Part shown: piece by piece, positions 1 to 64,000 of the stretch
Numbering within the stretch: position 1 is the first letter of the stretch
Layout of the letters: each line of letters starts with the position of its first letter
Assembly: GCA_018657495.1 (NCBI GenBank)
Contig: JABHXA010000004.1
Span: 83,086-147,085, forward strand
Length of the DNA: 64,000 nt
Direction of reading: 5' to 3'
Source: Fidelibacterota bacterium
GTDB lineage: Bacteria > Fidelibacterota > Marinisomatia > SCGC-AAA003-L08 > JACNLC01
Translations under genes and position numbers: made by a program
Notes under the pieces: model-generated
Seen by the model: the letters and a program-made list of their open reading frames with translations, nothing else
What the model was told of the DNA's origin: nothing
Database searches by the model: none

Positions 1-1
1 G

Positions 2-2161: not shown

Positions 2162-2162
2162 C

Positions 2163-3688: not shown

Positions 3689-3899
3689 GAATAACTAATT
3701 ATATTTTGGATTAAAACAATTGGAAAAGTTAATACAGCTATTAATAATGATCCCGATAAAAACATCAAGATTATAAAAATATTATATTGATTTTCAGATG
3801 GATTGATAACATTATTTGAAAACAAATATTTTACAATATTCAGGTTGATGAATCATCTTAAATACTTTTATAGGAAAAGGATATCTCTTAAATTTATCG

Positions 3900-4379
3900 A
3901 TGTGTCAACCCGTTTTAATCAGCGCCTGTCTTCTGGGTGACAATTGTCGCTATGATGGATGCAACAGTCTCATCAGCCAACTGAAAAATGCCTCTATTAA
4001 CTGGATACCCGTTTGTCCTGAAATTGAAGGGGGCATGCCGACCCCAAGATTAAAATCTGAATTTCAGGATACTGCTTCTAATATTCTTAATACTGGAAAA
4101 GGTATCTTAAATGAAGTTGGCGAGGATAACGCTGATGCATTTATAACCGGTGCCAAAAAATCATTACAAAAAATATCAGGTCAAACAGTCAAATATGCTA
4201 TCCTGAAATCAAAAAGCCCCTCTTGCGGATTTGAACAGGTTTACGATGGTTCCTTTTCTGGGAAATTGATTCAAGGGAATGGAATATTGACACAGTTAGC
4301 AATGGATGCTGGAATAAAAGTTATATCCTCTGATGATACAGAAAAATGGTTCGAATTATTGGATAGGAAAATTAAATGA
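3900..4379 (+). CDS. DUF523 / TudS-like [4Fe-4S] protein (2-thiouracil desulfurase family)
   Basis: The N-terminal ISACLLGDNCRYDG, plus PVCPE and SPSCG, are the cysteine positions typical of DUF523. Confidence 0.7.
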   Translation: MCQPVLISACLLGDNCRYDGCNSLISQLKNASINWIPVCPEIEGGMPTPRLKSEFQDTASNILNTGKGILNEVGEDNADAFITGAKKSLQKISGQTVKYAILKSKSPSCGFEQVYDGSFSGKLIQGNGILTQLAMDAGIKVISSDDTEKWFELLDRKIK

Positions 4380-9061: not shown

Positions 9062-9136
9062 ATGTCTGCTAAGAGATATTTTCTATTATTTGCTGTATGC
9101 GCTAGTTTATCCATATTTAACACCGCCTATTCTCAA
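9062..9136 (+). other. Signal peptide of the giant protein
   Basis: MSAKRYFLLFAVCASLSIFNTAYSQ has a basic n-region, a hydrophobic core and an AYS-Q cleavage-like site. Confidence 0.7.
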
Positions 9137-23178: not shown

Positions 23179-23219
23179 TAAAGAAAAGAATTACAACTAA
23201 TAAACAAGGAGTTAAATAA

Positions 23220-29716: not shown

Positions 29717-30899
29717 GAATTCAGCAATACTAATTTTAATAGCATTATTTACCGCGTGTTCAACGGGAAATCTCGATCGCAAAAGTCCCTTTAACAGTGC
29801 TCAACATAAGTTGTGGATCAATCACTACAAGATTACAGAAAGCGATAGTTTCCATGTTGATATAACCATTCATTCTCCAAATCCATTTTTTATTTTTTCA
29901 AAACATGATGATCATTTCAAAACTCAAGCAGAGTTCCAGCTCTCGGTTACTGATGTAGAAAGTGATAAGCAGGTATATCGTAAATCCTGGGTTGAAGATT
30001 CCGTTGAATTTTTCTACGAGGATACACGTCAACCTGAAAGATTCGTCAACAGTGAATTTTCAATTTATCTTGATGAGGGAAAATATGAATTTTCTCTTAT
30101 GGTTTTTGATAAAGATAGTAAGCATAATTGGAATGTCAAAAAAGAAGTGGATATATTGACAAAAACAAGTATGAGTGAAATATTCCCTGTATATTTAAAA
30201 GACTCTAAATATCTTTATACTGGTGATCAAATAAATCTTAAAATTGGCTCGTTTTTTCTAAGATTCCAAATCCCCCTTGAAAATGATGAAACAGAAATTC
30301 TGACAAAATATACGATTTCCGATATGGGGACTATTATTCTCAGCGATTCTTCAAATATACAAGTTGATGAAAAGGGTTTCATTTATCTTCCAATATCTAT
30401 TGATGAAGAATGGCTTGGTGTGATGGAATTTAAGGTAACTGCAGGAGGGTACAGCAACAATGTTGAATTATCCTTCATTAATACCTCAATAGACAAATAT
30501 TTTCAGGATATACCTCTGCTTGTACAGGTTATGTCTCTGATTCTTGAATATGATGATTATAAGGAATTATCAAAACTTGAACCTATCGATCAGAAACTCT
30601 ATGTGTATAATTACTGGCGCGATAACGATCCCACACCTGAAACGAAAGATAATGAGTTATTGATGGAATTCTACGGCCGGGTCGAATATTCCAATTCCCG
30701 TTTTGGCACGCTCTCATCAGGATGGAAATCTGATAGAGGAATTGTTTATATTCAAAATGGCAAACCTTCAACCGTCGAAGTTACAGGACGGGACAATTAT
30801 GGTAGAGCCTATGAGATATGGACTTACAGTGACCACCGACAATATGTTTTTCTGGATGATGGTTTTGGAGAATATAGACTATATAGGCAGACGAATTAA
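29643..30899 (+). CDS. GWxTD domain lipoprotein (start uncertain)
   Basis: The C-terminal FGTLSSGWKSDRGIVYIQNGKP...YEIWTY matches the GWxTD motif. A lipobox-like ILIALFTAC is present. The only ATG (29643/29646) overlaps the upstream gene by 74 nt. Confidence 0.65.
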   Translation: MMKPGSGLAQIGEWHFIIGAGIINKNSAILILIALFTACSTGNLDRKSPFNSAQHKLWINHYKITESDSFHVDITIHSPNPFFIFSKHDDHFKTQAEFQLSVTDVESDKQVYRKSWVEDSVEFFYEDTRQPERFVNSEFSIYLDEGKYEFSLMVFDKDSKHNWNVKKEVDILTKTSMSEIFPVYLKDSKYLYTGDQINLKIGSFFLRFQIPLENDETEILTKYTISDMGTIILSDSSNIQVDEKGFIYLPISIDEEWLGVMEFKVTAGGYSNNVELSFINTSIDKYFQDIPLLVQVMSLILEYDDYKELSKLEPIDQKLYVYNYWRDNDPTPETKDNELLMEFYGRVEYSNSRFGTLSSGWKSDRGIVYIQNGKPSTVEVTGRDNYGRAYEIWTYSDHRQYVFLDDGFGEYRLYRQTN

Positions 30900-46012: not shown

Positions 46013-48829
46013 ATGACTAAAACTCTAAAAATCCTCTGCTTGGTTTTTGCAGGGGTTTTAATGATTAATACAGGATGCGACTCAAAACCTGTTAACATAG
46101 ACCTTGGTGATAATGGATACAAACTTGATTCATTCTATACCAATTCCAATTTTTCCAGATCAATACAAGATGGTTCTGGAATAGGCCATAGTTCACGCCT
46201 TTATCTAGGTAAACTTGATTCTGTTAGAAGTAGCTATGCACTCTTAAAACTCAATAAGGATGTTCTGGAGAATCATTCAGATATCTGCTCACTTCCTTCT
46301 GACAGCGTCATCTACAAAGAATCCTTCATTAGGTTGAATTCTGTAATACGTTTGACCACCCAGGGCGAAATTTCGGAATCTGATTCAGCTTATCAAGACA
46401 ACCATTTCGATTTTCATGAAGAGTTTCAATCGTTTCAAGCTTTTTGGATAAATTTTGATAATACAGATTTTTCCTGGAATGAGTTTTCCACTTTCAGCTT
46501 AAACGACTCCATAATTACTGAAATTGGAGAACTGTCAAATATCCAATCTTACAATAGCAATATTTCTGAGTTGGTAGTTACGGTTAAAAACTTTATTTTA
46601 GATATTCATCTGATTCCAACACTAGGTGGCAATAATAATTACCTATCAGATTTATGTGATGCGTCCTCAAGTGATAGTTATGGAATTTTATTACGTTACA
46701 ATAACCCAGATGAATATATTGAATTGTATTCAACAGATTATTCTATTTTATCGGGACAGCCGTATTTTGATGCCATGTATGAAAAATATACCGATGTTTT
46801 TCTAAATGAAAATAAATATGAAATATCCAGCGTAACTCCAATTGCTTTCGATTTAAATGGTATATTATCGGACCTCGAGTCAGCCAGCGCTGGATGGGGT
46901 ACTGTAATTGCCATGAATTTTGATCTAGACTCACCTCCATCAGGCACTATTAATCCACAGATTGGCATGATTGACAGTACCTTTGAACTCATGTCATTTG
47001 AGATCGACTTAATCGACCATGAAACTGATTCTTCCGGTTTAGTTGATATCTATCTTTCTGATATAATTTTAGCAAATATGGATATAGACCCCAGTAATGA
47101 TAATTACTCAGAAAATGATACTTTGGGAACGGAGAATAATTTTCTCCCTGACGATGGAGAATTATATTTTGATTGTGGGCTGGATGGTTTATGTGATGAA
47201 GATGAACCGGGATATTTCCCAGAGGGTACTGAAAATAATGAGTTATGGGATGATGGAGAATTCTTTAGTGATACCGGCATCGATAGTCTGTTTAATATAG
47301 ATGAGCCCAATTATGATGCAATTACAAATCCTGATCCAAATAGCGATGACTATAATATTGATCCGACAGAAGATAATTGGTTAGATTGTGGTTTTGATAA
47401 TATTTGCCCTGAAGATGCCAATTATATTGAATCCGATGAAGGTGAAAATAATGGTGAATGGGATTTTGGAGAGACTGGCGAAGAAGGGAATGGTCAATTT
47501 GAAAACGGTGAATTATATTGGGATTATGGCCTGGATGGGATTCACGACGTCAATGAACCCGGCTATGATGCTATTCTAAATCCCGATCCAAATAATGATA
47601 ATTGGGATGAAAACACCCAAACCGGAACAGAAGGCAATAACATATTTGACTGGACCGATGTAAATGATGATGACAGGATGGATGATGATGATGTATTTGA
47701 AGTTTTTATGGATGCTGGTCTTGATACACTCTGGAGTTTGAATGAGGATGGATTTAATCCTCTCGGAACAGAAGGTAATGGTTTATACAATTTTGGTGAG
47801 GGTTTCGAGGACTGCGGAATTGATATGGTGTGTGATGAACCTGACGATATTGATGATTACATACCTGATCCATCTGAAGATAATTATGATGTGGAAAATA
47901 ATCCTGATGGAACAGAAATAAACGGAGTTCTTGACTGGCAAGATTCAAATGACAATGGATTATGGGATATGAATGAAGGTGAAGAATGGTTTGACTGGGG
48001 TGTGGATCAAGTTCAAAATGAGTTAGAACCATATTATGGGGGGCGAAGAATAAACTTGCCATCAGCAATAAATTTTGTGGAATGGGATTTTGTCGATAAT
48101 CCCACGATAACATTTGACATGCCGACCTATAATCAGGATCAAGGGGAAGAAGCCGTAATTTGGATCTCATCAATCGAACCTGACGGTACACCGGAAAAAT
48201 ACATTGTCACCTTATCAGTGAATACATCAATTGCCTTACACGGATTTCAACTAAAGCTGAATCATATCCCATTTAGCTTCACTGAATCTCAGTTGACAGA
48301 ATTTCATACCGGTCTAAGATATATTGAAGGCGATAAACTTATCGAAGATGTATCATTGTATCAGCAACACGAGATTGATGAAGACAGCTTAATAAATACA
48401 CTTCAAATAAAATATGGCGATAATCTAAAAGCATATTTGGATTTTACTGAATTAATAGATTTCCAAATCGAACATCAGGATGCTATAATTTCAAAATCAC
48501 TTCTGACGCTTTATATCGATTCTTCAAGGACAGATATAGATGGCACTATATTCCTCAATGTTAATAGGATGACTGATCCACTGGAGCTGCCTGTTGATTC
48601 TCTAATGACAAATGAGATGAATAGCATAGTAGTGTCAGAAATAAATGATGGTATTATTCAAATCGATATCAAACCCTTTATTCAGGATATTGCTTTTGGG
48701 GAATATGAATTTTTTGGTCTTATTCTTGAAGCATCTAGCTTAGGCAATAATTTTTCAATACTTACAATAAATAATGATATGAGTCCAGATACACTGAAAC
48801 CCCAAATAGAAATTTTGTTCTCAGAATGA
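46013..48829 (+). CDS. Large lipoprotein with a central acidic repeat region (possibly DUF4270-related)
   Basis: The lipobox is LMINTGC. The central ~320 aa (nt 47078-48045) holds about seven [FWM]D.G.D...(E/D)P.Y(D/F)-type acidic repeats. Confidence 0.5.
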   Translation: MTKTLKILCLVFAGVLMINTGCDSKPVNIDLGDNGYKLDSFYTNSNFSRSIQDGSGIGHSSRLYLGKLDSVRSSYALLKLNKDVLENHSDICSLPSDSVIYKESFIRLNSVIRLTTQGEISESDSAYQDNHFDFHEEFQSFQAFWINFDNTDFSWNEFSTFSLNDSIITEIGELSNIQSYNSNISELVVTVKNFILDIHLIPTLGGNNNYLSDLCDASSSDSYGILLRYNNPDEYIELYSTDYSILSGQPYFDAMYEKYTDVFLNENKYEISSVTPIAFDLNGILSDLESASAGWGTVIAMNFDLDSPPSGTINPQIGMIDSTFELMSFEIDLIDHETDSSGLVDIYLSDIILANMDIDPSNDNYSENDTLGTENNFLPDDGELYFDCGLDGLCDEDEPGYFPEGTENNELWDDGEFFSDTGIDSLFNIDEPNYDAITNPDPNSDDYNIDPTEDNWLDCGFDNICPEDANYIESDEGENNGEWDFGETGEEGNGQFENGELYWDYGLDGIHDVNEPGYDAILNPDPNNDNWDENTQTGTEGNNIFDWTDVNDDDRMDDDDVFEVFMDAGLDTLWSLNEDGFNPLGTEGNGLYNFGEGFEDCGIDMVCDEPDDIDDYIPDPSEDNYDVENNPDGTEINGVLDWQDSNDNGLWDMNEGEEWFDWGVDQVQNELEPYYGGRRINLPSAINFVEWDFVDNPTITFDMPTYNQDQGEEAVIWISSIEPDGTPEKYIVTLSVNTSIALHGFQLKLNHIPFSFTESQLTEFHTGLRYIEGDKLIEDVSLYQQHEIDEDSLINTLQIKYGDNLKAYLDFTELIDFQIEHQDAIISKSLLTLYIDSSRTDIDGTIFLNVNRMTDPLELPVDSLMTNEMNSIVVSEINDGIIQIDIKPFIQDIAFGEYEFFGLILEASSLGNNFSILTINNDMSPDTLKPQIEILFSE

Positions 48830-50049
48830 AGTACATTTTAATTATTCTTCTAACCTGTTTTGCCTGGTCACAAACAAGCACATCATCTTTACTGGGTCTT
48901 GGCGAAAACATACAGTATTATGATCCATCCACTGTTGGAGCAGGAGGAAATACGTTATTTTCCTCCCATTCAGATGAATTCACATCTTCATCTCCAACAA
49001 CATTATGGAAAACAAATACTACACGATTGAGCATATCCACATCATTTAACAGGAATAGGACGGATGGAGGCGGGCGTCAGGAATCACAGCTGATAAATCA
49101 GATTTCATTTACCTTCCCCATTAAACCTATGAGCGCCATTTCATTTGGTCTTCGACCTCACACTCGTTCAGCATTTCAAATTCGTACCAATTACGATGAA
49201 GCCGAGCATGTCCAATTTGATGAAAATGTATTTGCCCCGGCATTTTATTATCACAGCAGTGGCGGAATCAGCAGATATTTTATATCGTATTCTAAGAAGA
49301 TTAATGATACCTACTCACTAGGAATCACATGGAATAATGAATTTGGTAATCTGTTTTTGACAGATTCAGTCCTTACTTATAAAGTAACTACCAATTCGGA
49401 ATCTGGGGCAACAGTTTATAGTTTATCTGATATTTCAATAAACAATCTTACTCAAAATTTTAATGGCAGCAGTATCTATTTTGAAGGTAGGTACACTCAA
49501 AACAAAAATCATATGGTCCTTGGTATTGAATTAGAAAATTCATTGACTATCAAATCAAAAAATTACAACCCGATTACCGGTAGTGAATCCACAACAGCAG
49601 AAACAATCAAAATGGAATTTACCGGGTTCAAAGGGGGATATGAGTATAAACATAACGAGACTATCAGCGGAATTGTTGAAGTTAATTATTACAAACCGCT
49701 CAAGACTGCAAATCCAATATTTGGCTTGAATAATATAAGTCAGTTAGGATTGCATACAGGTATTATAAAAAGAGTTAAAAATTCCAAATTAGGTCGATGG
49801 GACTTTTTAAATATTTCCACGGGATTATATTCGTATCAACATAAAACTTCAAATGGAAATTATAGTGATACAGGGATCAGCTTTGGATTGGGAATGGAAT
49901 ATTTCAATAAAAGAAATATGATTGATCTTGTTATTACTGCTGGAAAGCGTACGAGTCCATTTGATGAATTGACAAATGAAGAATATATAAACCTGATGGT
50001 AGGTATAACTACAGGGGAAACATGGTTTATAAAAAGGAGAAAAAAATAA
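48826..50049 (+). CDS. Hypothetical exported protein, possible outer-membrane beta-barrel
   Basis: The signal peptide is MKYILIILLTCFAWSQ. The sequence is Ser/Thr/Asn/Gly/Tyr-rich with alternating patterns. The start overlaps the upstream stop (ATGA). It has no terminal Phe. Confidence 0.35.
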   Translation: MKYILIILLTCFAWSQTSTSSLLGLGENIQYYDPSTVGAGGNTLFSSHSDEFTSSSPTTLWKTNTTRLSISTSFNRNRTDGGGRQESQLINQISFTFPIKPMSAISFGLRPHTRSAFQIRTNYDEAEHVQFDENVFAPAFYYHSSGGISRYFISYSKKINDTYSLGITWNNEFGNLFLTDSVLTYKVTTNSESGATVYSLSDISINNLTQNFNGSSIYFEGRYTQNKNHMVLGIELENSLTIKSKNYNPITGSESTTAETIKMEFTGFKGGYEYKHNETISGIVEVNYYKPLKTANPIFGLNNISQLGLHTGIIKRVKNSKLGRWDFLNISTGLYSYQHKTSNGNYSDTGISFGLGMEYFNKRNMIDLVITAGKRTSPFDELTNEEYINLMVGITTGETWFIKRRKK

Positions 50050-50053
50050 TCAT

Positions 50054-51307
50054 ATGAAAAAGCAATTTATATTATATGCGATAATTTTATTATTAATTGG
50101 AGTTGGATGTGTACCTCCTGAAACTACAGTTGAAGATGAAGATACTGGAATGACGGCTATTGAACGCAACAAAGAATGTGATTTGTATTTAAGTTTTGCT
50201 CATACAAATTATCAAAATAGAGATTATCGGAGTGCTATAAGAAATTTTTCAAATATTATCGATTTAGGTTGTGCAAAAAGAAATAGCCTGGAAATATTTC
50301 CGTGGATGACCAGATCTTATATCGAACTATCAAAAGATGAGAAAGAACCCAAATTAGCAACCGTATTGATGGATAGTTCGTATTGGTCCATTCGACAGGG
50401 TCTAAAATATTCTCCAGATGAAATGAGCATGCTGGAATTAGCCGCCTGGATAGCAGGAGATATGGGTAAAACAGATGACCAGATATATTATATTGATAAG
50501 ATCCTTTCCATTGATCCGGAGAATACTTCGATTCTTTGGAAAATCTTTGATATTTATTCTGAGCAGGATAATTGTACTGAAATGTTAAATATTTTAAACA
50601 TATTGTTAAATATAGATTCTGAAGATAAAAAAGCCCTCGGTGAATTACGCAATGTTTATGAATGCCTTGGCATGGATCCCATTGAGATTGACAAAGAAAG
50701 ATGCGAAAATGATCCGTCAAATGTACCGCTATGTTTTTCGTATGCCAAAGCATTACAGCAACGTAGTGATTATGACGAGTTATTGTATGTTTTACCAAGA
50801 TTACTGTCCCATGACCCATCCAATAAAGATATAATTCAAATGCTTGCAGAAACTTATAATCAATTGGATAAATCCGCTGATGCCCTAAAGGCTTATGAAA
50901 AATTATTTAACATCACAAGAGATTATAAAATTGCTCTGATAATATCCGAATTACATTTGGATGATGAGGACTTCAAAAATGCTCTGAAATGGGCCGAAAC
51001 AGCGATATCTGTCAGTAATGGAAAAGGTGAAGCCTACTATGGAAGAGGGGAAGTTTATCGTGAAGGTATAAGCGCCTGCAGTGGTGAGGGATTAACATTC
51101 TCTGATAAACTTGGCTATGAAATGGCCTTTGAAGATTATTCAACTGCCTTAGATAAAAAGTATTTCTCTGCAAGAGCAAGAAAAGAATCATTGAGCGAGT
51201 TTATTACAACTTCATCTGATTGGTTCATGCGTCCGGATGGTGAACGTGAGGCAAAACCGGAGGGAGCATGTGTCAATTGGATAACAAGGACAATTAAAAG
51301 AAAATAA
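50054..51307 (+). CDS. TPR-repeat lipoprotein
   Basis: The lipobox is LLIGVGC. Multiple TPR-like helical pairs are present (DYRSAIRNFSNII, ADALKAYEKLFNI, FKNALKWAETAI). Confidence 0.5.
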   Translation: MKKQFILYAIILLLIGVGCVPPETTVEDEDTGMTAIERNKECDLYLSFAHTNYQNRDYRSAIRNFSNIIDLGCAKRNSLEIFPWMTRSYIELSKDEKEPKLATVLMDSSYWSIRQGLKYSPDEMSMLELAAWIAGDMGKTDDQIYYIDKILSIDPENTSILWKIFDIYSEQDNCTEMLNILNILLNIDSEDKKALGELRNVYECLGMDPIEIDKERCENDPSNVPLCFSYAKALQQRSDYDELLYVLPRLLSHDPSNKDIIQMLAETYNQLDKSADALKAYEKLFNITRDYKIALIISELHLDDEDFKNALKWAETAISVSNGKGEAYYGRGEVYREGISACSGEGLTFSDKLGYEMAFEDYSTALDKKYFSARARKESLSEFITTSSDWFMRPDGEREAKPEGACVNWITRTIKRK

Positions 51308-51744
51308 TGGAAATAGCCATCGGAGCCGATCATGCCGGTTTCAAAGCGAAAATATTTCTTATTGCACATTTAGAAAGTAAGGGATATGGAATTCACGATG
51401 TCGGTACTGATTCTGTAAAATCTGTAGACTACCCACATTTCGCCCATGCCGTTGGAAAAATGGTTATTGACGGGCATGCCGATAAAGGAATTGTAATTTG
51501 CGGTACGGGTATAGGGGTATCCATATCTGCAAATAAAATCCCCGGTGTTAGAGCTGCCCTCTGTAGTACAAATGAAGATGCAGAGATGAGTCGAAAACAT
51601 AATAATTCAAATGTCCTGGCATTGGGGGCAAGATCATGCGGACCTCCCGATCTTGTTGCAATTACAGATACATGGCTGAATACAGCTTTTGAAGGGGGCA
51701 GACATGAGCGAAGAGTTAACCAAATAGAAAATATAAATATATAA
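51307..51744 (+). CDS. rpiB: Ribose-5-phosphate isomerase B
   Basis: [13 protein letters not shown] and [14 protein letters not shown] are present. The ATG overlaps the previous TAA by 1 nt. Confidence 0.9.
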
Positions 51745-51746
51745 TT

Positions 51747-53048
51747 ATGATTGACAAATTAAAAATATCCGATCCTCAAGTATATGCATCAATCCAGGGA
51801 GAATTGAAAAGACAGCAGTTTACTTTGGAAATGATAGCATCTGAAAATTTTACCAGTCCTCAGGTGATGGAAGCTGTTGGATCTATTATGACCAACAAAT
51901 ATGCTGAAGGATATCCTGGGAAAAGATATTATGGTGGTTGTGAACAAGTAGATATTGCTGAGGATCTGGCTCGGGATAGAGCAAAGAAATTATTCAATTG
52001 TGAATATGCAAATGTTCAGCCTCATTCAGGATCACAGGCAAATATGGGTGTTTACATGGCTATTTTAAAACCCGGTGATACAGTGCTTGGATTAAATTTA
52101 TCCCATGGTGGTCACCTTACCCATGGTAGTCATGTGAGTTTCTCAGGCAAACTCTATAATTTTGTATCTTATGGAGTTGATGCCCAAAGCGGTCGAGTTG
52201 ATTTCAACCAAGTGGCTAAACTCGCCAGGGAGCATAAACCAAAGATGATTATCTGTGGTGGCAGTGCATATCCTCGATTTATAGAGTTTGAACAATTTAG
52301 GGAAGTTGCCGATTCTGTCGATGCTTTACTAATGGCCGATATTGCCCATCCATCTGGTCTTGTTGCAGCAGGAATTCATCCTTCACCATGGCCACATTGC
52401 CATGTTGTTACCAGCACAACTCATAAAACCCTTCGTGGCCCCAGGGGAGGGATAATCCTTGTCGGCAAAGATTTTGAAAACTCGTGGGGTATGGTAGCAC
52501 CCAAATCAGGTCGTATAAAAATGTTTTCAGAACTTCTTGACAGTTCTGTAATGCCTGGAATTCAAGGTGGACCGCTGATGCATGTGATTGCGGGAAAAGC
52601 TGTGGCATTTGCTGAAGCACTAAAACCGGATTTCACCACCTATGCCAGGCAGATTACCTCAAATGCAAAAGTGCTGGCTGAAAAATTACTTTCGTTAGAT
52701 TATCAATTAGTCTCTGGTGGAACAGATACTCATCTGGTCTTAATCGACTTGTCAAAAGAAGGAATATCTGGTAAAAAGGCTGAAAGAAGACTTGAGGAGG
52801 CAGGGATTACTACAAATAAAAATATGGTACCATTTGATCAAAGAAGTCCTATGGTAACCAGTGGTATCCGAATAGGAACTCCTGCATTGACTTCCCGGGG
52901 TATGGGTATTGATGCAATGAAATTGATCGCTGGATTGATTGACAGCGTAATCAAAAATATTGATGACGATAGCGTAATAAAAAAGGTAAATGAAAAAGTC
53001 ATTGAGCTTTGTGATGGGTTCCCGCTATACCCTGAATTCAACGATTAA
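51747..53048 (+). CDS. glyA: Serine hydroxymethyltransferase
   Basis: [24 protein letters not shown] and [14 protein letters not shown] are present. Confidence 0.95.
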
Positions 53049-54717: not shown

Positions 54718-55721
54718 AGCTTTCAAGAGTATTTTGGGTGGGTTTTATCATCACTATTACATCAGTGGCATTCATTGGCGGCATGTTGTATCTTCAGGAA
54801 ATATCCTTTTCAAAATCAAATTTTACATTTACAATTATACTGGATAGCGTCCAGGGGCTGAATGAGGGTGACAATGTAAGTATGCTTGGTAAAAGAATTG
54901 GAAAAGTTACAAAAACAAAAATTATCGGACAGAAAATTGCCGTGGAATTATCAATAGATAACTCTTTTGCCTTTAGGATCCCTGTAGATTCAATAATTGA
55001 GGTAAAAAGTGAGGGATTGCTTGGTGAGAAATATGTTTCTATTTCCCCAGGGGTTGATACCAAACACTATCTATTAGAAGGGGAAACCGTTCAGGGTACA
55101 AGAGAGAAGGACCTATCTGAGATTACTCCTGGAATAATACCAATAACAAAGGATTTAGGTGCAATTGCCAGACGCTTACGCGCTACGCTTGGTGAAGATG
55201 AGAAAACACGGATTCAATCCACTATTAAAAATATCGAAAGTCTAACCGCCGAACTCAATCTATTGACTACAGAATTCAGAGGCACTATCAGTGAAGAAGA
55301 TAAAGAATATATACACGCATTTACTCTAAATATGAAATTACTATCAGATAGCCTGCGCACAGAATTTGATAATAGTTTTAAATCAGTTGATGCCATACTC
55401 TCAGATGTGAATGATATCACCTCAAGTGTAAAAAGTAAAACAGATACATTTAATGAATCTATCGACAAATTAAATCAAAGTGCTGAAATCCTTTTGAGTA
55501 CGGCCGAAACTTTTAATTCAATAACAAATGAATTAAAAACATCTATTGATAAGCTAAACGGGATGGAAGGGACCCTGCCAAGATTGTTAAATGATGACAA
55601 AGTCTACAATAATGTCGATAGCTTAATATTTGATATTCGATATATTGTCGACGATTTCAAGGAAAATCCCGGTAGATATCTTAAAGCATATATGAAAGCG
55701 AAAAAGACTGATGACGATTAA
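54714..55721 (+). CDS. mlaD: MlaD-like MCE-domain protein
   Basis: It has an N-terminal TM helix, an MCE beta-barrel segment (GLNEGDNVSMLGKRIGKVTK...EVKSEGLLGEKYVSISPG) and a long helical C-terminus. Confidence 0.8.
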   Translation: MKLSRVFWVGFIITITSVAFIGGMLYLQEISFSKSNFTFTIILDSVQGLNEGDNVSMLGKRIGKVTKTKIIGQKIAVELSIDNSFAFRIPVDSIIEVKSEGLLGEKYVSISPGVDTKHYLLEGETVQGTREKDLSEITPGIIPITKDLGAIARRLRATLGEDEKTRIQSTIKNIESLTAELNLLTTEFRGTISEEDKEYIHAFTLNMKLLSDSLRTEFDNSFKSVDAILSDVNDITSSVKSKTDTFNESIDKLNQSAEILLSTAETFNSITNELKTSIDKLNGMEGTLPRLLNDDKVYNNVDSLIFDIRYIVDDFKENPGRYLKAYMKAKKTDDD

Positions 55722-55887
55722 CGGTGAAAATAAATCGCAGGATTCTATGGAAGAACTTTTAGAGATAATTTGCTGTCCATACTGCAAACATGACTTATCA
55801 TATGAAACAACATCAAATTTAATCTGTCATAATTGTAATCAGAGATACTTAATTCAAGATGAAATACCGGTTTTACTTACAAAATAG
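55711..55887 (+). CDS. Trm112/UPF0434-family zinc-ribbon protein (58 aa, below the ORF-track cutoff)
   Basis: My own translation gives MTINGENKSQDSMEELLEIICCPYCKHDLSYETTSNLICHNCNQRYLIQDEIPVLLTK*. The pattern CPxC...CxxC...Y.I.D.IPVLL fits the family. The ATG overlaps the mlaD stop. Confidence 0.7.
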   Translation: MTINGENKSQDSMEELLEIICCPYCKHDLSYETTSNLICHNCNQRYLIQDEIPVLLTK

Positions 55888-56081
55888 GCTGGCTGAAATA
55901 AATTTGTATATAATCGTATCAATCATTGTATGATATTAAAAAGTAGCTATACATTTCACATCGAAAAAAATAGGAGATTTTACATAAACTTTCGTTAACA
56001 GGATGCATTATTCACACAGAGAACAGGTGGGAATAATTAATATAATATTATGCATGTATATCCTTAGCGAAAGGTACTTTG

Positions 56082-56116
56082 ACCGAGTAACCGATAGGAT
56101 GTACTCGGTTTTTTTT
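56082..56116 (+). terminator. Rho-independent terminator-like hairpin 195 nt after the last upstream gene
   Basis: A perfect 8-bp stem, ACCGAGTA (56082-56089) / TACTCGGT (56102-56109), is followed by T7 (56110-56116). Confidence 0.65.
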
Positions 56117-56141
56117 ATAGAAAATAGGAGTAATTATAAAA

Positions 56142-57518
56142 ATGAAGTGGTTGGTGAAAATAACAGCAATTTCAATGTTAATCACAAGCGCCTGGGCAGT
56201 TGGTGAAGCCGGTGCAATATTTCTGATGATCGCCCCCGGGGCAGGACCTGCAGCCACCGGTGAGGCTCAGGTAGCGAAGGTGGGAGATGCATATGCGTCA
56301 TATTATAATCCTGCCGGTTTGGGTTTCCTAAGCGGAAGGGAAGCAGCCCTTATGCATGTCAATTGGTTACCCAATTTGGCGGATGATTTGTTTTATGAAT
56401 TCATGGCTTACAGGCACGAAGTTCCAGGTTTGGGTACATTTGGTGGACATATAATATTTTTAAATCTTGGCAAGCAAATTCAAACAGATGAAAATGGAAA
56501 TCAAATTGGAGTTTTTCGCAGTAATATGTGGGCTATTACCGGAAGTTTTGGAACCATGTTGAACGCACGTTCATCTATTGGTGTGAGCGCTAAAATATTT
56601 CATCAAAAATTATTTGATAAGGGTGTAAGCGGAGAGGCCGGGAAAGGAATCTCAACAGATTTCGCCTTTGACCTTGGTTACCTGTGGAAAAGCGATAGAA
56701 TAAATTTTGGTATAAGCATCGCTAATATTGGGCCAAGCATCGCTTTTATCGATGAGAACCAGGCTGATCCTGCTCCAACAAATATGAGGATGGGAGTTAA
56801 ATTTGACGTTTTTAAAAATGAATTCAACCGTCTTGAATTGTTTTTTGACATGAATAAAATGCTGGTGGCATCCTATTCTGAAATGGATTGGGATGATAAT
56901 GGAGTTATTGGTGGTTATACCGATAATGGAAATGAATCATGGGGTGGCGATTACAATTCAGACGGTCAACAGGAAACTGCTTATAAAGACAAATGGTATA
57001 AAGCGCTTTTCACATCATGGTTAGATGATTGGTACCTTGGAGGAGACCTCAATCTGGGCGGTTGGACAACACAACAGGAAGCGGATAATGTCATTGGTGG
57101 TTATACATGGATAGATAATCCTTTAAATACAGATGATATCGGTGAAATTTATGGCAAAGGAGATTCACAGGTATCTAATTATGTATCTAGACCTGAATGC
57201 CCACAATGTGAAATTGTTGCTGAAGAAAATGGTAAATTAAATGAATGGGGTGTCAAAGAGATTGGCACAGGTGATGACAGAAAATTCTCCGCCGAATTTA
57301 AAGAAATGGTCTATAATTTTGGTGCAGAATATTGGTACACAGATAACTTTGTTCTAAGGGGTGGATTTATATATGATGAGGTAGGTAAAATAAAAGTTCC
57401 TACATTTGGTGCCGGTATTCATCTGGGCCAGTATGGATTCGATTTTGGCTACACCGCCGGCAAGAGTGGTCATCCCAGAGCAAACACGATGTATTTTTCT
57501 TTAAATATTGAAATCTAA
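56142..57518 (+). CDS. porV: T9SS outer-membrane shuttle protein PorV (LptO) family
   Basis: It has a signal peptide. GAIFLMIAPGAGPAATGEAQVAKVGDAYASYYNPAGLGFL is followed by MHVNWLPNLADDLFYEFMAYR. The C-terminus is ...NTMYFSLNIEI*. Confidence 0.7.
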   Translation: MKWLVKITAISMLITSAWAVGEAGAIFLMIAPGAGPAATGEAQVAKVGDAYASYYNPAGLGFLSGREAALMHVNWLPNLADDLFYEFMAYRHEVPGLGTFGGHIIFLNLGKQIQTDENGNQIGVFRSNMWAITGSFGTMLNARSSIGVSAKIFHQKLFDKGVSGEAGKGISTDFAFDLGYLWKSDRINFGISIANIGPSIAFIDENQADPAPTNMRMGVKFDVFKNEFNRLELFFDMNKMLVASYSEMDWDDNGVIGGYTDNGNESWGGDYNSDGQQETAYKDKWYKALFTSWLDDWYLGGDLNLGGWTTQQEADNVIGGYTWIDNPLNTDDIGEIYGKGDSQVSNYVSRPECPQCEIVAEENGKLNEWGVKEIGTGDDRKFSAEFKEMVYNFGAEYWYTDNFVLRGGFIYDEVGKIKVPTFGAGIHLGQYGFDFGYTAGKSGHPRANTMYFSLNIEI

Positions 57519-57530
57519 CCAAAATATCCG

Positions 57531-60176
57531 TTGAAAATATCTCCTATAATTATAAGTATTTCCCTTTGTCTTGCTGGGAATACGCCGGATTTTATCCTAC
57601 CATCAAGTACAGTAAATAATATTGCAAGTTATTCCACAGTGACATCAATAATTGGAGTCATGGTAGATTTTCAAATTGAAACTGAAGATTCACCGGATTT
57701 ACTTACAAGTGGCAACGGTGCTTTTCTACAAAGTTCAGAAGATGTGTTTGATGAACGATGCATTGATTTCCATGCCGATCCACCGCCTCATAATCATGCC
57801 TATTTTACATCACAGATAAAAGCCCTAAATAATTACTATAAAAATGTGTCGCAGGGAAGTATTGATTTATCTTACCATGTCATTGATTCAGTTTACCATC
57901 TTCCAAATATTATGAGACATTATGCCACTGAAGATACATCCCTTGGATTATTGTTTAATGATGCAGTTAATTTGGCTCAAGACTCTCTCGCTTATTATTA
58001 TGATGATAATACCATTGTTGTAATATTTCATGCCGGCATTGGGCAAGATTTTGCCATCCCGTTTCTTGATCCAACACCCTATGATTTAAAAAGTGCTTTT
58101 GTGGATGATGAGATAATGGCAGAGACTCCTTGGCCACAGATAAATGGACAAACACTATCCCGCGGAATTATTTTGCCTGAAACCCAAAATCATCTCTATT
58201 ATGATGTAATAGAAGAGATATTCTTTGGTGAAACCGATTATTGCGATTACCAGGTTGGCATGACCGGTACTTTTGCTTTTCTAATGGGTTATGCATTTGG
58301 ATTACCTCCGTTATTTAATACTGAAACAGGAGAATCCGGTATTGGTGTATTTGGATTAATGGATCAGGGGTCAAATAATGGACGCGGGGTTATACCAGCC
58401 CCACCAACTGCGTGGACAAGAATATTAAAAGACTGGGATCAATATGATGACATTAATCAGCAGGGATCACAGCAAATTTCAATTAATTATGACAGCGGAC
58501 AATTTCACGATATACATAAGATCAAAATTTCAGAGAGTGAATACTATTTATTAGAAAACCGTACAAACCGGGTAAATCGATTCGTAGACAAGAGCATAGA
58601 TGATATCCGCTATGACAATCGCGATTCTGATAATCGTAGAGCGCATTGGTTTGATACCGTTGAGGAAGAATTTACTCAAGCACAAATAGAAATCGATAGT
58701 GAAACTGGAGTAATCACCTGGTTTGACCATTATGATTATGGATTACCAGGATCAGGATTACTGATCTGGCACATAAATGAACCGGAAATTGACCATCTTA
58801 TGGATGGAATCAATAATGATCGCCAAAACAGATCAGTTCACCTTGAAGAGGCAGATGGATCTGTAGACATAGGTTTTGAAAGTTATGCCGTCTTTCAATC
58901 CGATGACCCCACAAATGGCCGTATTTGGGATATGTGGTACAGGGGGAATGGTGGATTTTTCTTCGCAAATGATACATTGCAAATACCACCAGGTGATGAG
59001 CCCTTTGGACCAAATCCATGGTTTAATGATTCTTCTTATCCAAATACAGAGTCCCAATCAGGTGGTAAAACTTATATATCAATAGATTCCATCAGTTATT
59101 CTGGTACAGCCATGAGCTATGTCTATGCATTAACTCCGCCATTTGAATCTCAATTTCTTTCTGATGAGGAAATATTTGTTTCAGGTGGATATATTGACGA
59201 AGAGGCCAGCGATGGCGGTTTATATTATATACTAAACGAGCAATTATTCAGAAGAAATCAGAATGAAATTGAATCGATTGCTGTTGGAAGCTGGTTGGGA
59301 TATGTCCTGACTTCTAGTGAATGCTTTCAGGACACATTTAACATTGATTTGGATCAATATACTGACCTTTATATTAATGAAGAAAGCTGCCAGGTTGAAT
59401 CATCCACAAACATTCTGCCAATGGCATATTTGAACGATGACACAATCCTTGAAGAAGTGGAAGTGGCAGATGCCCTGGGTGATATTGATATGGATGGCCT
59501 TGATGAAATAATTACCACTGAGAATGGCTCTATCTTTTCCAGAAATAGTAACAGTATAATGAATAATGGATTTCCTGTAGCAGGTAATTTTTATGGTAAT
59601 ATTCTGATTGCAAATGTTATTGGCAATGCATCTCCTGAAATCATTTGCCGTGAAAATGATAATATTGTCTTCATTAGCAACGGGGGTGAGAGGTTGTATG
59701 AAATTTCCTCATATCAACCGGAACAACCACTTATGACCATTCCTTATTGGTCAAATGACTCCATGGCGATAATCGATGGGAGAAGGATATTTTTATTTCC
59801 AAATGATTTAGATCATTCCTACTGGTTATTTCCTGGCGGAAGTCCATCAAATAATCTCGTTGTTACCGGTGCTCATCACACTTCTGCTATACCATCATTT
59901 GGATTTGATAAAAATCGGGCATACAATTACCCGAATCCAATTACAGATAATCGCACTACATTTAGATATTTTGTTGGTTCTGCCGCATCAATTGAGATAA
60001 AGATATATGATTCATCGGGGCACCTTATAAAAAATCTATACAATGATGATCTAACCCATAATGAGTATAATGAAACAGCCTGGATACCTGGAAAAATAAA
60101 TCCTGGATTATACCTGGCTGAAATAAAACCAGATGTGGGTTCTTCCAATATTATTCAAGTAGTTTATTTAAAATAA
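57531..60176 (+). CDS. CTD-bearing M6 (InhA)-like protein with the HExxH motif replaced (putative pseudo-peptidase)
   Basis: M6-like landmarks are IIGVMVDFQIE, VIFHAGIGQDF, GIILPETQ and GTFAFLMGYAFGLPPLFNTE...GVFGLMDQGS, compared with the M6 pattern G.FAHEFGHDLGLPDLYDT. An FG-GAP-like GDIDMDGLDEII is present. The CTD YNYPNPITDNRTTFRYF... spans 59922-60173. Confidence 0.55.
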   Translation: MKISPIIISISLCLAGNTPDFILPSSTVNNIASYSTVTSIIGVMVDFQIETEDSPDLLTSGNGAFLQSSEDVFDERCIDFHADPPPHNHAYFTSQIKALNNYYKNVSQGSIDLSYHVIDSVYHLPNIMRHYATEDTSLGLLFNDAVNLAQDSLAYYYDDNTIVVIFHAGIGQDFAIPFLDPTPYDLKSAFVDDEIMAETPWPQINGQTLSRGIILPETQNHLYYDVIEEIFFGETDYCDYQVGMTGTFAFLMGYAFGLPPLFNTETGESGIGVFGLMDQGSNNGRGVIPAPPTAWTRILKDWDQYDDINQQGSQQISINYDSGQFHDIHKIKISESEYYLLENRTNRVNRFVDKSIDDIRYDNRDSDNRRAHWFDTVEEEFTQAQIEIDSETGVITWFDHYDYGLPGSGLLIWHINEPEIDHLMDGINNDRQNRSVHLEEADGSVDIGFESYAVFQSDDPTNGRIWDMWYRGNGGFFFANDTLQIPPGDEPFGPNPWFNDSSYPNTESQSGGKTYISIDSISYSGTAMSYVYALTPPFESQFLSDEEIFVSGGYIDEEASDGGLYYILNEQLFRRNQNEIESIAVGSWLGYVLTSSECFQDTFNIDLDQYTDLYINEESCQVESSTNILPMAYLNDDTILEEVEVADALGDIDMDGLDEIITTENGSIFSRNSNSIMNNGFPVAGNFYGNILIANVIGNASPEIICRENDNIVFISNGGERLYEISSYQPEQPLMTIPYWSNDSMAIIDGRRIFLFPNDLDHSYWLFPGGSPSNNLVVTGAHHTSAIPSFGFDKNRAYNYPNPITDNRTTFRYFVGSAASIEIKIYDSSGHLIKNLYNDDLTHNEYNETAWIPGKINPGLYLAEIKPDVGSSNIIQVVYLK

Positions 60177-60205
60177 TTTTATTCATAATACAGTATATTA
60201 ATTAA

Positions 60206-63205
60206 TTGAGTATGACTTCTACAAGGAACCCACTTATTTCTATATTTAATTACATTTCTGACAATTTAAAATCTCATTCGCGATTTATAGTATATGTTAG
60301 TTTTCTGCTCACAACATTTATATATCCTCAAAGTTGGTATAACCATGTTGAATTGGATTGGCATACCATTGAAACAGATCATTTTTTCGTTCATTATCAT
60401 GATGAAACAGAAAGAAGCGCTAGAGAAGCGGCAGTCGTGGCCGAATTTATTTACGGACCTATCACCGGCATTTATAATTTTGAACCGAGTTCAAAAACTC
60501 ATTTGATTATAAAGGACGTTGATGATTATTCAAATGGTGCAGCATATTACTACGACAATAAAATTGAGATATGGGCTCGTCCTCTAGAATTTGATTTAAG
60601 AGGTGCGCATCGTTGGATGCAGGACGTAATCACCCACGAATTCACTCATATTGTTCAAATCCAGGCATCAATGAAATATCCGCGAAAAGTCCCTGGATTT
60701 TATTTCCAATCCCTCATGTACGAAGATGAAAAAAGAGACGACGTATTATATGGATATCCCAATGTAATCATATCTTACCCAATTCCCGGCACTGCTGTAC
60801 CGCCATGGTTTGCCGAAGGGACTGCACAGGTAATGTATAAAGATGCTAATTTTGATTTCTGGGATTCTCACCGGGATATGATTCTTAGGGACCGCACCCT
60901 AAACAATAATCTGCTTTCGTTTGATGCAATGAATACTTTTGGTAAAAAGGGCATTGGTAATGAATCCATATATAATCAGGGTTTTTCGTTTGTAAACTAT
61001 CTCGCCAATCGATTTGGTATGGATGTGCTCCATGATATCTCAAAGGCCTTGAGAAATCGCCTCAATTATTCGATTCGCAAAGCAATGAAGGATGCAACTG
61101 GCATCGATGGAGAGAATCTTTATAATGAATGGGTGAAAGATTTAAATACTAAATATGTTGCTAAAACAATACATCTCAATGGAAATATTCAATCAGGGGA
61201 TGTTATAATTAGGGGGGGTACAACAAATATCCATCCTGTATGGTCACCTAACGGAAATCGATTCCTGTATTTATCCAATGTTGAAAATGATTATTTTAGC
61301 CAGACAGATTTATTTTTATATGACTTCAGCGACTCCACGTCAAAAAAGATTTTTTCACGTATAGAAACTGCACCATGCTGGGTAAATGATTCCACTATCA
61401 TTTATACACGAAAGGATAAACCAAATAAAAATGGTTCCAGGTTATATGATCTCTTTCAATATGATCTGGTAGAGGAAGAAGAAACAAAACTTACACATGA
61501 CCAAAGATTGATTTCACCTGTTATCAATAGACAACTGAATATGATTGCAGCTATTACTACCTATGACGGGACATCCAATATATTGATAAGTGAATTAGAT
61601 AGTATTGATTTTAAACCTCTGACAAATGAAAAAAACGGTCTGCAAATGTTTTCTCTTGATTGGTCGGGAGAATCATTATTAGTAGATGCAACAGAACATC
61701 ATGGCCGGCAGGTATATGAAGTGCTTCCGGATGGTCAACTAAATATTAAATCAGCGATAGGATTTGATACCAGGGATCCGGAAAACTCTGAAAACTTAAT
61801 TATAACTTCAAATGATAAATCCGGGATTTTTAATCTTGAAATTCATGGTGATAATCAATCAGGCTACATTACCAATGTAACCGGTGGGGCATTTATGCCT
61901 GATATTTCGAATGATGGTAGAATTCTGTACAGTCTCTATCAAAACGGAAGTTACAATATCGCCTTAATAAATGATTATGATGTAATTGATTCAGAAATAA
62001 TAGGGTACGCTGACAATTATTTTGAGACATACCCAGAGTCAGATTTGATAGATTATGGAATTCGGGCAGAATCAAAATCATATGAGGATACATTCCCAAA
62101 TCCATTTATCCTGCCAAGATTGATGATGGATTATAAGACTTTAAAACCAGGGTTTTATCTGTTTAGCAGTGACATTCTAAATCGTCTGTTTCTTTTTGGT
62201 GGTGCTTCGCTAAATCGATTGGGTGATAAAGATATATTCCTTATCATTGAGTATGGAAAATGGAAACCAACATTTTACACAAATCTGTTTTGGATTTCAC
62301 GAAATACTGTTCAGAACACAACTTATAATGAAATCTATCCAACTAAAAGTGATCTTACAATTCAGTTCTTTTCAACAGATATAGGATTGAGATTTCCCTT
62401 TATGAACAATAAAATCTGGCTATACTATACCTATACAAAATATCGACAAGTAATTAATCAAGTTATTAATAATGATGATGGACATGTCGAGTCCTTTGGT
62501 GGTATTGCATTTGATTATTTTAGGACTCATATATTATCGTTGAAAGGCGAGTATTCAACGAGAAAACCAGAATATGCCGGTAACATGCTGCCTTCCAACG
62601 GATACGAAATTGAATTCTTACTTTCCCGGGAAAACAATAAGTTTATGGATGGTTTTGGGTTTAATGAAGAGTATAGCACCTTTGAAACATTTTTTAAAGA
62701 TCACTTCACCGAAAGACTTACAATCACTGGAAAAAAACATTTTACATTAAATCAAGAGAAAAAATTCGTCGCATCTCTTGAAACGCAGATTGGTTATTTA
62801 TCAAATAAACATGTTGATGATTTCTTTTATTTTTTTGCCGGTGGTTTACCAGGATTAAAGGGATATACATTTTATAATGAAGATTTGCACGGGCCGTATT
62901 TATGGGTGAATACCGGTACAGTCAGACTTCCATTATTTATGGAAAAAAGTTATTCCTTTGCACATATGAATTTTCAGAATATGTCAGTTGGCATGATCAT
63001 GCAAATGGGAGGTGGATTTGAAAGTAATCTATCAGGTTTTTTAAAGAATAAAGAATACAAAGTTTCTGGGGGTGTAGAATTCAGGCTAAGTGGATATTCA
63101 TTTTTTGGATATCCAACTGCAATAGCTTACGAATATCACAAGCCCATTGCAGATTCGGAAGAGTCTAAAGGTAAACAGTATTTAACAATACTTTTTGATT
63201 TTTAA
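60206..63205 (+). CDS. Fusion protein: HExxH metallopeptidase-like domain + PD40/TolB-like beta-propeller + Omp85-type barrel
   Basis: VITHEFTHIVQ lies at 60635-60649. PD40-like blades are PVWSPNGNRFLYLSN and FMPDISNDGRILYSL. The C-terminal FFAGGLPGLKGYTFY...VRLPL matches the Omp85 motif, and the terminal residues are ...ILFDF*. Confidence 0.6.
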   Translation: MSMTSTRNPLISIFNYISDNLKSHSRFIVYVSFLLTTFIYPQSWYNHVELDWHTIETDHFFVHYHDETERSAREAAVVAEFIYGPITGIYNFEPSSKTHLIIKDVDDYSNGAAYYYDNKIEIWARPLEFDLRGAHRWMQDVITHEFTHIVQIQASMKYPRKVPGFYFQSLMYEDEKRDDVLYGYPNVIISYPIPGTAVPPWFAEGTAQVMYKDANFDFWDSHRDMILRDRTLNNNLLSFDAMNTFGKKGIGNESIYNQGFSFVNYLANRFGMDVLHDISKALRNRLNYSIRKAMKDATGIDGENLYNEWVKDLNTKYVAKTIHLNGNIQSGDVIIRGGTTNIHPVWSPNGNRFLYLSNVENDYFSQTDLFLYDFSDSTSKKIFSRIETAPCWVNDSTIIYTRKDKPNKNGSRLYDLFQYDLVEEEETKLTHDQRLISPVINRQLNMIAAITTYDGTSNILISELDSIDFKPLTNEKNGLQMFSLDWSGESLLVDATEHHGRQVYEVLPDGQLNIKSAIGFDTRDPENSENLIITSNDKSGIFNLEIHGDNQSGYITNVTGGAFMPDISNDGRILYSLYQNGSYNIALINDYDVIDSEIIGYADNYFETYPESDLIDYGIRAESKSYEDTFPNPFILPRLMMDYKTLKPGFYLFSSDILNRLFLFGGASLNRLGDKDIFLIIEYGKWKPTFYTNLFWISRNTVQNTTYNEIYPTKSDLTIQFFSTDIGLRFPFMNNKIWLYYTYTKYRQVINQVINNDDGHVESFGGIAFDYFRTHILSLKGEYSTRKPEYAGNMLPSNGYEIEFLLSRENNKFMDGFGFNEEYSTFETFFKDHFTERLTITGKKHFTLNQEKKFVASLETQIGYLSNKHVDDFFYFFAGGLPGLKGYTFYNEDLHGPYLWVNTGTVRLPLFMEKSYSFAHMNFQNMSVGMIMQMGGGFESNLSGFLKNKEYKVSGGVEFRLSGYSFFGYPTAIAYEYHKPIADSEESKGKQYLTILFDF

Positions 63206-63231
63206 TTTTTGATATAAATAAAAGGCTAAAT

Positions 63232-64000
63232 ATGAAAAAATATCTGACAATATTATATATCACCATTAGTGTTATTGCTTCAATGAATTTTACATTCGGG
63301 GGTGAATTGGGTTTTAGTTATGATAAGATGCTTTTGATCAATAGCACATTAGATTCAACAATTACAAGCGATGAAAATCTAAGTCAAAATATTATAACAA
63401 ATAAAAAATATACCGGCCGGGCAATGTTGTATTCGGGTTTGTTGCCGGGGTTAGGTGAGTACTATACAGGTGCATGGAAGCGAGGACTTGTTTTTGCTGG
63501 AATAGAGATAGCTGCCTGGATGAGCTGGTCAAAATTTGAGAAAAAAGGAGATGATGCATCCGATGATTACGAATTATATGCAGATGATCATTGGGAATTC
63601 TCCAGATGGGTTGCAAATCATGACAATTGGGAAGGGGATACTTTATTCCAATCCATGTTCTCAAAAAATATAGCAGATGAAGGCGATGAACCTCTTTATT
63701 TGTATGAAGATATATGGGAAGGCAGCCACTCAATCGAAATTGCCTATACAGTTTATGAAGACGGTATTGAAAAAATAAAACTGCTTGATACCAATTCTAA
63801 AAGTGGAACAGGAAGTAGTGATAGTTACCTTTTTGAAGAATTATTTTATGACGGCTTTTTATTTGAACAGAATGGTATTCAATATAATTTTGTAAATATG
63901 TCTGATGAACAAATTGCTTGTTATATCGGGGAATATGAATGCGATCCATCTTTTGTAACAGATCCAAATTTTCAAGTAATTAAAGACAATACTTATTATG
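63232..64000 (+). CDS. Hypothetical membrane-anchored protein, 3'-truncated by the window edge (not in the ORF track)
   Basis: My own translation from the ATG at 63232 is open to the window end: MKKYLTILYITISVIASMNF...YSGLLPGLGEYYTGAWKRGLVFAGIEIAAWMSW... It starts 26 nt after the upstream stop. Confidence 0.5.
   Translation, partial: MKKYLTILYITISVIASMNFTFGGELGFSYDKMLLINSTLDSTITSDENLSQNIITNKKYTGRAMLYSGLLPGLGEYYTGAWKRGLVFAGIEIAAWMSWSKFEKKGDDASDDYELYADDHWEFSRWVANHDNWEGDTLFQSMFSKNIADEGDEPLYLYEDIWEGSHSIEIAYTVYEDGIEKIKLLDTNSKSGTGSSDSYLFEELFYDGFLFEQNGIQYNFVNMSDEQIACYIGEYECDPSFVTDPNFQVIKDNTYY

Follow-up and report, generated by a model that had tools for sequence, protein, structure and literature searches.

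Peptidases of family M6 (MEROPS M6; PF05547; TIGR03296), among them InhA and PrtV, are assigned to MEROPS subclan MA(M), the Met-zincins; where a zincin carries the motif HEXXHXXGXXD, its zinc is bound by the two His and the Asp, and the Glu serves in catalysis (PMC3890501). A pseudo-peptidase of this kind is already catalogued, as NCBI curates the family NF052323 under the name 'T9SS-dependent M6-like inactivated metalloprotease' (T9SSA_dep_M6i; T9SS, type IX secretion system). In Bacteroidota, proteins with a T9SS C-terminal domain (CTD) are held on outer-membrane barrels of the PorV/PorQ/PorP type (PMC12365241, PMC9143113, PMC12618676). Here we describe an 881 amino acid relative of the inactivated family, encoded within a 64,000-nucleotide stretch of a Fidelibacterota bacterium (assembly GCA_018657495.1, contig JABHXA010000004.1, positions 83,086 to 147,085), hereafter the window. 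Its M6 zinc site has been replaced, its gene lies between those of a PorV-family barrel and an apparently active metallopeptidase, and we consider it probable, at about 70 %, that it is a T9SS-exported, catalytically inert M6 descendant acting as a ligand-binding subunit together with its two neighbours.

The degenerate zinc site

The elements of the gene and protein that bear on this reading are as follows.

57531-60176, plus strand: gene for the M6-like pseudo-peptidase; intact open reading frame with a TTG start, 881 amino acids
58026-58085, plus strand: block homologous to the M6 HAGxGQE element; residues 166-185, FHAGIGQDFAIPFLDPTPYD
58266-58319, plus strand: degenerate active-site helix; residues 246-263, GTFAFLMGYAFGLPPLFN
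58338-58397, plus strand: retained Met-turn block; residues 270-289, GIGVFGLMDQGSNNGRGVIP, the counterpart of WSIMSxGS in genuine M6
59928-60128, plus strand: C-terminal sorting domain of T9SS type A; TIGR04183 match to residues 800-866

The preliminary description of this locus had set the string at 58266-58319 against an M6 active-site block, and had read from it the changes His to Phe, Glu to Leu, His to Tyr and Asp to Pro. The string reads GTFAFLMGYAFGLPP, and the 36-residue string that had been quoted continues in frame. For comparison with real M6 sequences, five full-length 'immune inhibitor A' proteins were obtained by tblastn against plasmids, from Bacillus, Priestia, Clostridium, Pseudoalteromonas and Streptomyces replicons; a 42 amino acid InhA-like bait peptide had given only short PF05547-annotated fragments, which read GVFAHEYGHDLGLPDEYDT...W(S)xMS. 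Residues H375, E376, H379, G382, D385 and M404 are invariant in the five full-length proteins. Their profile was compared by hhalign with a family profile of 38 representatives, down to 35 % identity, of the window protein and its orthologues, and the two aligned with 95 % probability (E 3.8e-8) over 287 columns, pairing tFafLmGYalgLPP with vfAHEfgHdLGlpD and GLMDxGS with SiMsxGS.

In this alignment the HExxH column of the window protein is occupied by F250-L251-M252-G253-Y254; the first His is replaced by F250, the catalytic Glu by L251, the second His by Y254 and the invariant Asp that serves genuine M6 as third zinc ligand, six residues after the second His, by P260. Each of the four changes first proposed was thus upheld against genuine sequences. 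The surroundings of the site have been kept: the Met-turn residue, M277, never varies and pairs with the equally invariant Met of SIMSxGS in genuine M6, and the landmarks VDFQ, HAGIGQD and ILPE, which had also been picked out beforehand, align with LVEF, HAGxGQE and TIEPE respectively. The catalytic-domain fold is homologous to that of M6, the likeness extending to the V(D/E)F strand, HAGxGQ, (I/L)PE, GxFA, GLP and the Met-turn Met; unlike M6, however, the window protein has all four catalytic and zinc residues replaced, carries a propeller and a T9SS CTD C-terminally, and belongs to a family that appears, from its sequences, to be exported by T9SS in Gram-negative bacteria of the FCB group.

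A displaced motif was sought elsewhere in the protein. Neither HExxH nor HxxEH was found in the 881 residues, nor even an 'HE' dipeptide; the absence of any other HExxH had been stated before and stands, whereas the similar string given then as HEYNE is in fact HNEYNE, at residue 843 within the sorting domain. The domain is also recognisably M6-related, as the M6 domain model TIGR03296 matches residues 79-347 (E 3.4e-16), although at 60 bits against a cutoff of 110.8. In terms of the features that define the M6 family, the protein scores below the model thresholds, lacks HExxH and the third-ligand Asp, and has the Met-turn Met.

On these profile comparisons, the window protein derives from a Met-zincin of the M6 (immune inhibitor A) type, and its helix HExxHxxGxxD has become [F/L/Y][L/M]xGYxxxxx[P]. 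With the zinc-site residues replaced, such a helix, as its sequence reads, can neither bind a catalytic zinc nor activate water as M6 enzymes do.

Two cysteines, C77 (57759-57761, plus strand) and C238 (58242-58244, plus strand), do not vary within the 38-member family; genuine M6 enzymes have neither. C238 is carried by a clade-specific insertion of about 24 residues before the degenerate helix, and a C77-C238 disulfide may have taken the place of metal-dependent stabilisation.

From the N-terminus, the protein consists of a signal peptide; the M6-like domain (residues ~34-300); a beta-sandwich (~301-420); a conserved linker containing EEADGxxDIGF (~421-515); an FG-GAP/VCBS-like beta-propeller (~516-780), identified by propeller matches and DxDxDG repeats; and a T9SS type A CTD (~790-881). 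The C-terminal sorting domain expected from the preliminary description was confirmed by TIGR04183 at 25.4 bits (cutoff 23), with a weak match to Pfam Por_Secre_tail (E 2.7e-4), and a sorting-domain match is present in 34 of the 38 orthologues. Together with the Sec signal peptide, the type A CTD points to export across the outer membrane by T9SS.

Distribution and age of the inactivation

A word-indexed search returned 1,426 relatives of the protein, the top matches all being Marinimicrobia, Neomarinimicrobiota or Fidelibacterota, and found a 100 %-identical copy on 53 contigs. When one genome per GTDB species was scanned, relatives were present in at least 278 genomes; among the best 80 of these, all those with a named lineage belong to Marinimicrobia/Fidelibacterota. 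Across the 38-member alignment position 250 is F, L or Y and position 251 is L or M; G253 and Y254 are invariant and position 260 is mostly P. HExxH was found nowhere in the 38 orthologues or in 13 distant relatives, and in both groups the third ligand is replaced by Pro, Asn or Ala. All 38 orthologues therefore share the degenerate site, and the earlier proposal of a catalytically dead M6-like protein holds as far as sequence can tell, the three zinc ligands and the catalytic Glu having been lost family-wide. A recent pseudogene or a sequencing artefact was considered and rejected, as the reading frame is intact and the identical protein recurs on 53 contigs; the substitutions, shared by the whole family, mark the protein as a fixed pseudo-enzyme.

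The closest described family is NF052323. It is homologous over the M6-like half (E 4.3e-109), model positions 38-634 (of 1043) covering residues 32-623 and a second stretch being matched in addition; the score, however, is 366 bits against an equivalog cutoff of 600, which is missed because the propeller is shorter and the sequence has diverged. The model matches all 38 orthologues, with a best E of 3e-123 by comparison with about 1e-190 for members that pass the cutoff. Against P0223, a bona fide member, the window protein shows 32 % identity over residues 20-530 and 28 % identity between its residues 648-866 and residues 811-1044 of P0223. Both groups have lost the first His and the Glu; both retain the Met-turn block GxFGLMDQGS, followed by an FG-GAP-type propeller and a type A CTD; and both are encoded in a cassette of PorV, inactivated M6 and HExxH-propeller genes. 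They differ in length, the window protein being about 180 residues shorter with about 270 propeller residues missing; in the Cys-bearing insertion of about 24 residues, which belongs to the window clade; in the second His position, where the window clade has an invariant Tyr whereas some KSB1 members of the NF052323 type keep the His (e.g. GTAALMFGHQLGLPNLF); and in their hosts, which are Fidelibacterota/Marinimicrobia for the window clade and KSB1/Calditrichaeota for NF052323.

An exhaustive profile search of 1.84 billion representative sequences with the M6-like region gave 2,940 matches at E <= 1e-10, of which 645 reach E <= 1e-30. Beneath the group of about 880 amino acids lay a large block of proteins of 1,000-1,090 amino acids, nine of which were scored against NF052323; P0190 (662 bits) and P0223 (630 bits) pass and the rest scored 520-573. 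Close relatives of these longer proteins carry the names candidate division KSB1 and Calditrichaeota. The longer proteins themselves likewise have no HExxH, the first His and the Glu being replaced by aliphatic residues. Because the KSB1/Calditrichaeota-type proteins share this loss, the inactivation predates the divergence of Fidelibacterota, KSB1 and Calditrichaeota, and an origin older than the split of at least three phyla is new here. The window protein is best filed, on present scores, in a shorter Marinimicrobia/Fidelibacterota sister clade of NF052323 that falls below its threshold; this distinct pseudo-peptidase clade, in the abundant marine Marinimicrobia/Fidelibacterota and in at least 278 species genomes, is likewise an addition of this analysis.

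Constraint on the former cleft

Per-column conservation in the 38-member alignment is 0.57 overall, 0.50 in the propeller and 0.60 in the CTD. The four best-conserved windows of 20 residues all belong to what was once the catalytic centre:

Residues 270-289, GIGVFGLMDQGSNNGRGVIP: conservation 0.92, the highest 20-residue window of the protein
Residues 212-231, GIILPETQNHLYYDVIEEIF: conservation 0.84
Residues 243-262, GMTGTFAFLMGYAFGLPPLF: conservation 0.84
Residues 166-185, FHAGIGQDFAIPFLDPTPYD: conservation 0.83

This placing of the highest conservation in the dead cleft is a further result that is new here. Because a cleft predicted to be unable to bind zinc in the M6 manner is still the most strongly selected region, the pattern argues for a retained binding function as opposed to a passive scaffold, and it points to a ligand-binding site kept in the former cleft, the ligands probably being peptides.

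The same extreme conservation around the cleft, which includes several invariant acidic, His and Tyr residues, would also suit a hydrolase working through a non-canonical site, assembled from conserved residues such as H167, E217, D278, Y254 or E440/D442/D446, and the second His is retained in some KSB1-type relatives. Against this, the general-base Glu and the first-ligand His are aliphatic or aromatic in every sequence examined, the third ligand is Pro, Asn or Ala, and no member has an alternative zincin motif; H167, moreover, is not a replacement ligand, since it is also conserved in genuine M6 proteins with a normal site. We therefore regard a hidden catalytic activity as highly improbable and retain binding by an inert cleft as the preferred reading.

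An AlphaFold2 model built from the 38-member alignment had a mean predicted local distance difference test score (pLDDT) of 82.5 and a predicted template modelling score (pTM) of 0.81. It consists of an alpha/beta N-terminal domain in which helix 244-255 is the degenerate 'active-site' helix, a beta-sandwich (~305-420), a beta-propeller (~516-760) and a C-terminal beta-sandwich.

The three-gene cassette and its setting

The pseudo-peptidase gene is the second of three closely spaced genes on the same strand, in the order PorV-family barrel, dead M6 and HExxH+E protein of about 1000 amino acids. Its partners are:

56142-57518, plus strand: 458 amino acid outer-membrane beta-barrel of the PorV/PorQ family; ends 12 nucleotides before the pseudo-peptidase gene
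60206-63205, plus strand: 999 amino acid protein; starts 29 nucleotides after the pseudo-peptidase gene

The upstream protein scores 228 bits with NF033709, whose cutoff is 90, and matches Pfam PorV at E 1.6e-22. By comparison with the PorV-like protein of a locus from another lineage (L088), it carries an insertion of about 80 residues (residues ~297-378) that is rich in G, D, N and W, with GGY..., DxNG-like strings and a CPQC pair; this is presumably an extracellular loop.

The 999 amino acid partner has no match above threshold among curated families. It does contain HEFTH at residues 144-148, matches to Peptidase_MA_2 and to PD40, a propeller of the Tricorn/TolB-like kind, and a C-terminal LLFDF like that of outer-membrane proteins. 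The motif, as HE[FYL][TAV]H, is intact in 63 of 63 orthologues, in all of which H144, E145, H148 and E173 are invariant, E173 lying 25 residues downstream in a gluzincin-like arrangement; the orthologues inspected end in LLFD[FY]. On these features the partner appears to be an outer-membrane-anchored zinc peptidase, and at this locus a pseudo-enzyme thus has as its partner a predicted live enzyme from a different peptidase family.

Conservation of the neighbours was assessed by tblastn of the flanking genes against 80 related loci. Both were found, in the same order, in essentially every one of the 80 Marinimicrobia loci with enough flank, with higher identity for the two flanking genes (46-67 % and 40-64 %) than for the pseudo-peptidase (31-55 %). 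The MlaEFD genes further upstream are kept in a subset of loci only; they have been lost in most of the more distant loci, where the trio is retained. The trio is also present in two loci of other lineages, with P0165 (L087) and with the NF052323 member P0223 (L088) as the pseudo-peptidase; the third protein there has Tricorn_N, Tricorn_2nd and PD40 matches and reads HEFTH...YEKEK or HEFSH...YEPEK, and the wider flanks differ while the three genes stay together. Since promoter and terminator consensus scans of positions 55600-64000 found nothing above shuffled expectation, it is spacing and synteny that speak for an operon.

This synteny bears directly on whether the protein might be an ordinary T9SS-secreted adhesin or binding protein, with a gene order that is conserved but carries no functional coupling. 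Many T9SS cargoes are indeed large multidomain surface proteins with propellers and CTDs, the window holds a second pair of a PorQ-like and a CTD protein, and the partial conservation of the Mla flank indicates that general synteny is high in the phylum. The trio is nevertheless intact at the two other-lineage loci despite their differing wider flanks, its intergenic gaps are only 12 and 29 nucleotides, and it persists in the more distant loci where the Mla flank does not; an uncoupled adhesin is accordingly improbable, and we continue with a subunit that works with its neighbours.

PorU and PorZ retain their CTDs. The described pairs PorU-PorV, PorZ-PorQ and SprB-SprF resemble the cassette in combining a type A CTD, a PorV-family barrel gene and a large propeller surface protein (PMC12365241, PMC9143113, PMC8545088). 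The window protein showed no sequence homology to PorU or PorZ. The trio could on this comparison be a T9SS accessory or attachment module in place of a cargo system, with the pseudo-peptidase permanently PorV-bound in the manner of PorU or PorZ and the HExxH partner processing cargo outside Bacteroidota. Such a module would account for the tight, phylum-spanning linkage to a PorV-family gene and for a position among core envelope genes (Mla, BamG-like, YbgF-like) as opposed to a polysaccharide- or protein-utilisation locus; PorU, PorV, PorZ and PorQ form attachment complexes in Porphyromonas (PMC12365241, PMC8545088). The succession of large N-terminal domain, beta-propeller and CTD recalls PorZ, and a PorU model gave a faint match in two orthologues (E 4.5e-5). 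That match is very weak, though, and probably lies in the CTD; the NCBI family name 'T9SS-dependent' means cargo; and neither profile nor Foldseek searches detected homology to the PorU C25 domain or to PorZ. We consider an attachment module rather unlikely. In Bacteroidota PorU is a cysteine-protease sortase, and a more far-reaching version, which we hold to be unlikely, would make the trio an uncharacterised ancient outer-membrane module of T9SS in Fidelibacterota, KSB1 and Calditrichota, with the dead M6 protein as a PorV-docked receptor or regulator and the metallopeptidase taking over the processing or attachment for which Bacteroidota use PorU.

Our preferred reading remains that of an inert, ligand-binding subunit. 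The genes for the pseudo-peptidase, the barrel and the 999 amino acid metallopeptidase are co-inherited and probably co-transcribed; a Sec signal peptide and then T9SS would carry the pseudo-peptidase across the outer membrane; and its CTD would dock it at the cell surface on the adjacent PorV-family barrel, for which the Bacteroidota barrels cited above set a precedent. Once docked, it would serve as a non-catalytic substrate-binding or regulatory subunit of the neighbouring, apparently active metallopeptidase, the cleft elements that have been kept (Met-turn, HAGxGQ and LPE strands, and the new invariant Cys pair) forming the ligand site. Export, PorV docking, complex formation and a binding role are what we infer from the genes, as did the preliminary description in suggesting a 'binding or scaffold subunit', an idea that the conserved cassette strengthens.

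Several observations weigh against this reading. Pfam Peptidase_M6 (PF05547) is absent from the protein even at E <= 1, and the TIGR03296 match lies below its cutoff. The Met-turn loop 269-281 (58335-58373, plus strand), in the most conserved block, is the part of the M6-like domain modelled with the lowest confidence (pLDDT <50) and may become ordered only on binding of a ligand or partner. Foldseek with the full-length model returned propeller proteins only. A domain-only model (residues 34-515, from a 14-sequence alignment) is of modest quality (pLDDT 66); its best match, itself marginal, was the O-glycopeptidase OgpA, a zinc enzyme of metzincin type (E 3e-3, probability 0.96), with low-probability matches to ADAMTS4, fragilysin and ADAM10, so that the structure comparison supports a metzincin-like fold only weakly. 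The PDB, searched by sequence, family profile and fold, yielded no solved M6 structure, the sequence and profile matches being only to FG-GAP-like DxDxDG repeats in polysaccharide lyases. Synteny, moreover, is not proof of physical interaction, and cleavage of the CTD might simply set the protein free. A literature search covering the family, the cassette, T9SS in Marinimicrobia/Fidelibacterota and PorU outside Bacteroidota found no paper on the protein or cassette and no experimental data on any family member.

Marinimicrobia/Fidelibacterota are regarded as important in the breakdown of organic matter in the sea. That a pseudo-peptidase gene is locked into one cassette with the genes for PorV and for an outer-membrane zinc protease that appears to be active is new here. 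The cassette may encode a complex for surface proteolysis or an accessory of secretion, a proposal open to concrete tests, and follow-up work should centre on this conserved trio of PorV, pseudo-peptidase and peptidase.

Around the cassette, the window has the character of a core chromosome, with glnII, purH, mreB, pbp2, rodA, SHMT and Mla as well as genes like those for BamG and YbgF. Since the flanks are core genes (purH, mreB, pbp2, rodA, SHMT, Mla), the idea of an island that is mobile or was acquired horizontally was rejected.

Upstream of the cassette, positions 46013-53048 (plus strand) encode a 938 amino acid protein without a family match, a sub-threshold BamG-like protein, a tetratricopeptide repeat (TPR) protein, RpiB and SHMT. 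The order of a protein of about 400 amino acids, TPR, RpiB and SHMT also precedes the cassette in the non-Marinimicrobia locus L087 (positions 1-4869), which suggests an old envelope-biogenesis neighbourhood.

Further features of the window, away from the cassette, are:

9062-22183, plus strand: giant protein of 4,373 amino acids with tandem-95 repeats
22225-23178, plus strand: 317 amino acid gene product, PorQ/PorV-like at sub-threshold level
23220-26369, plus strand: 1,049 amino acid protein; strong match to the T9SS type A sorting domain
29643-30899, plus strand: GWxTD-domain protein (TIGR04514, E 1e-26)

The genes at 22225-26369 are a second pairing of a PorV/Q-family barrel with a CTD protein within the window. 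The GWxTD-domain gene overlaps the end of the gene for a 530 amino acid protein that has a two-component-regulator-propeller repeat.

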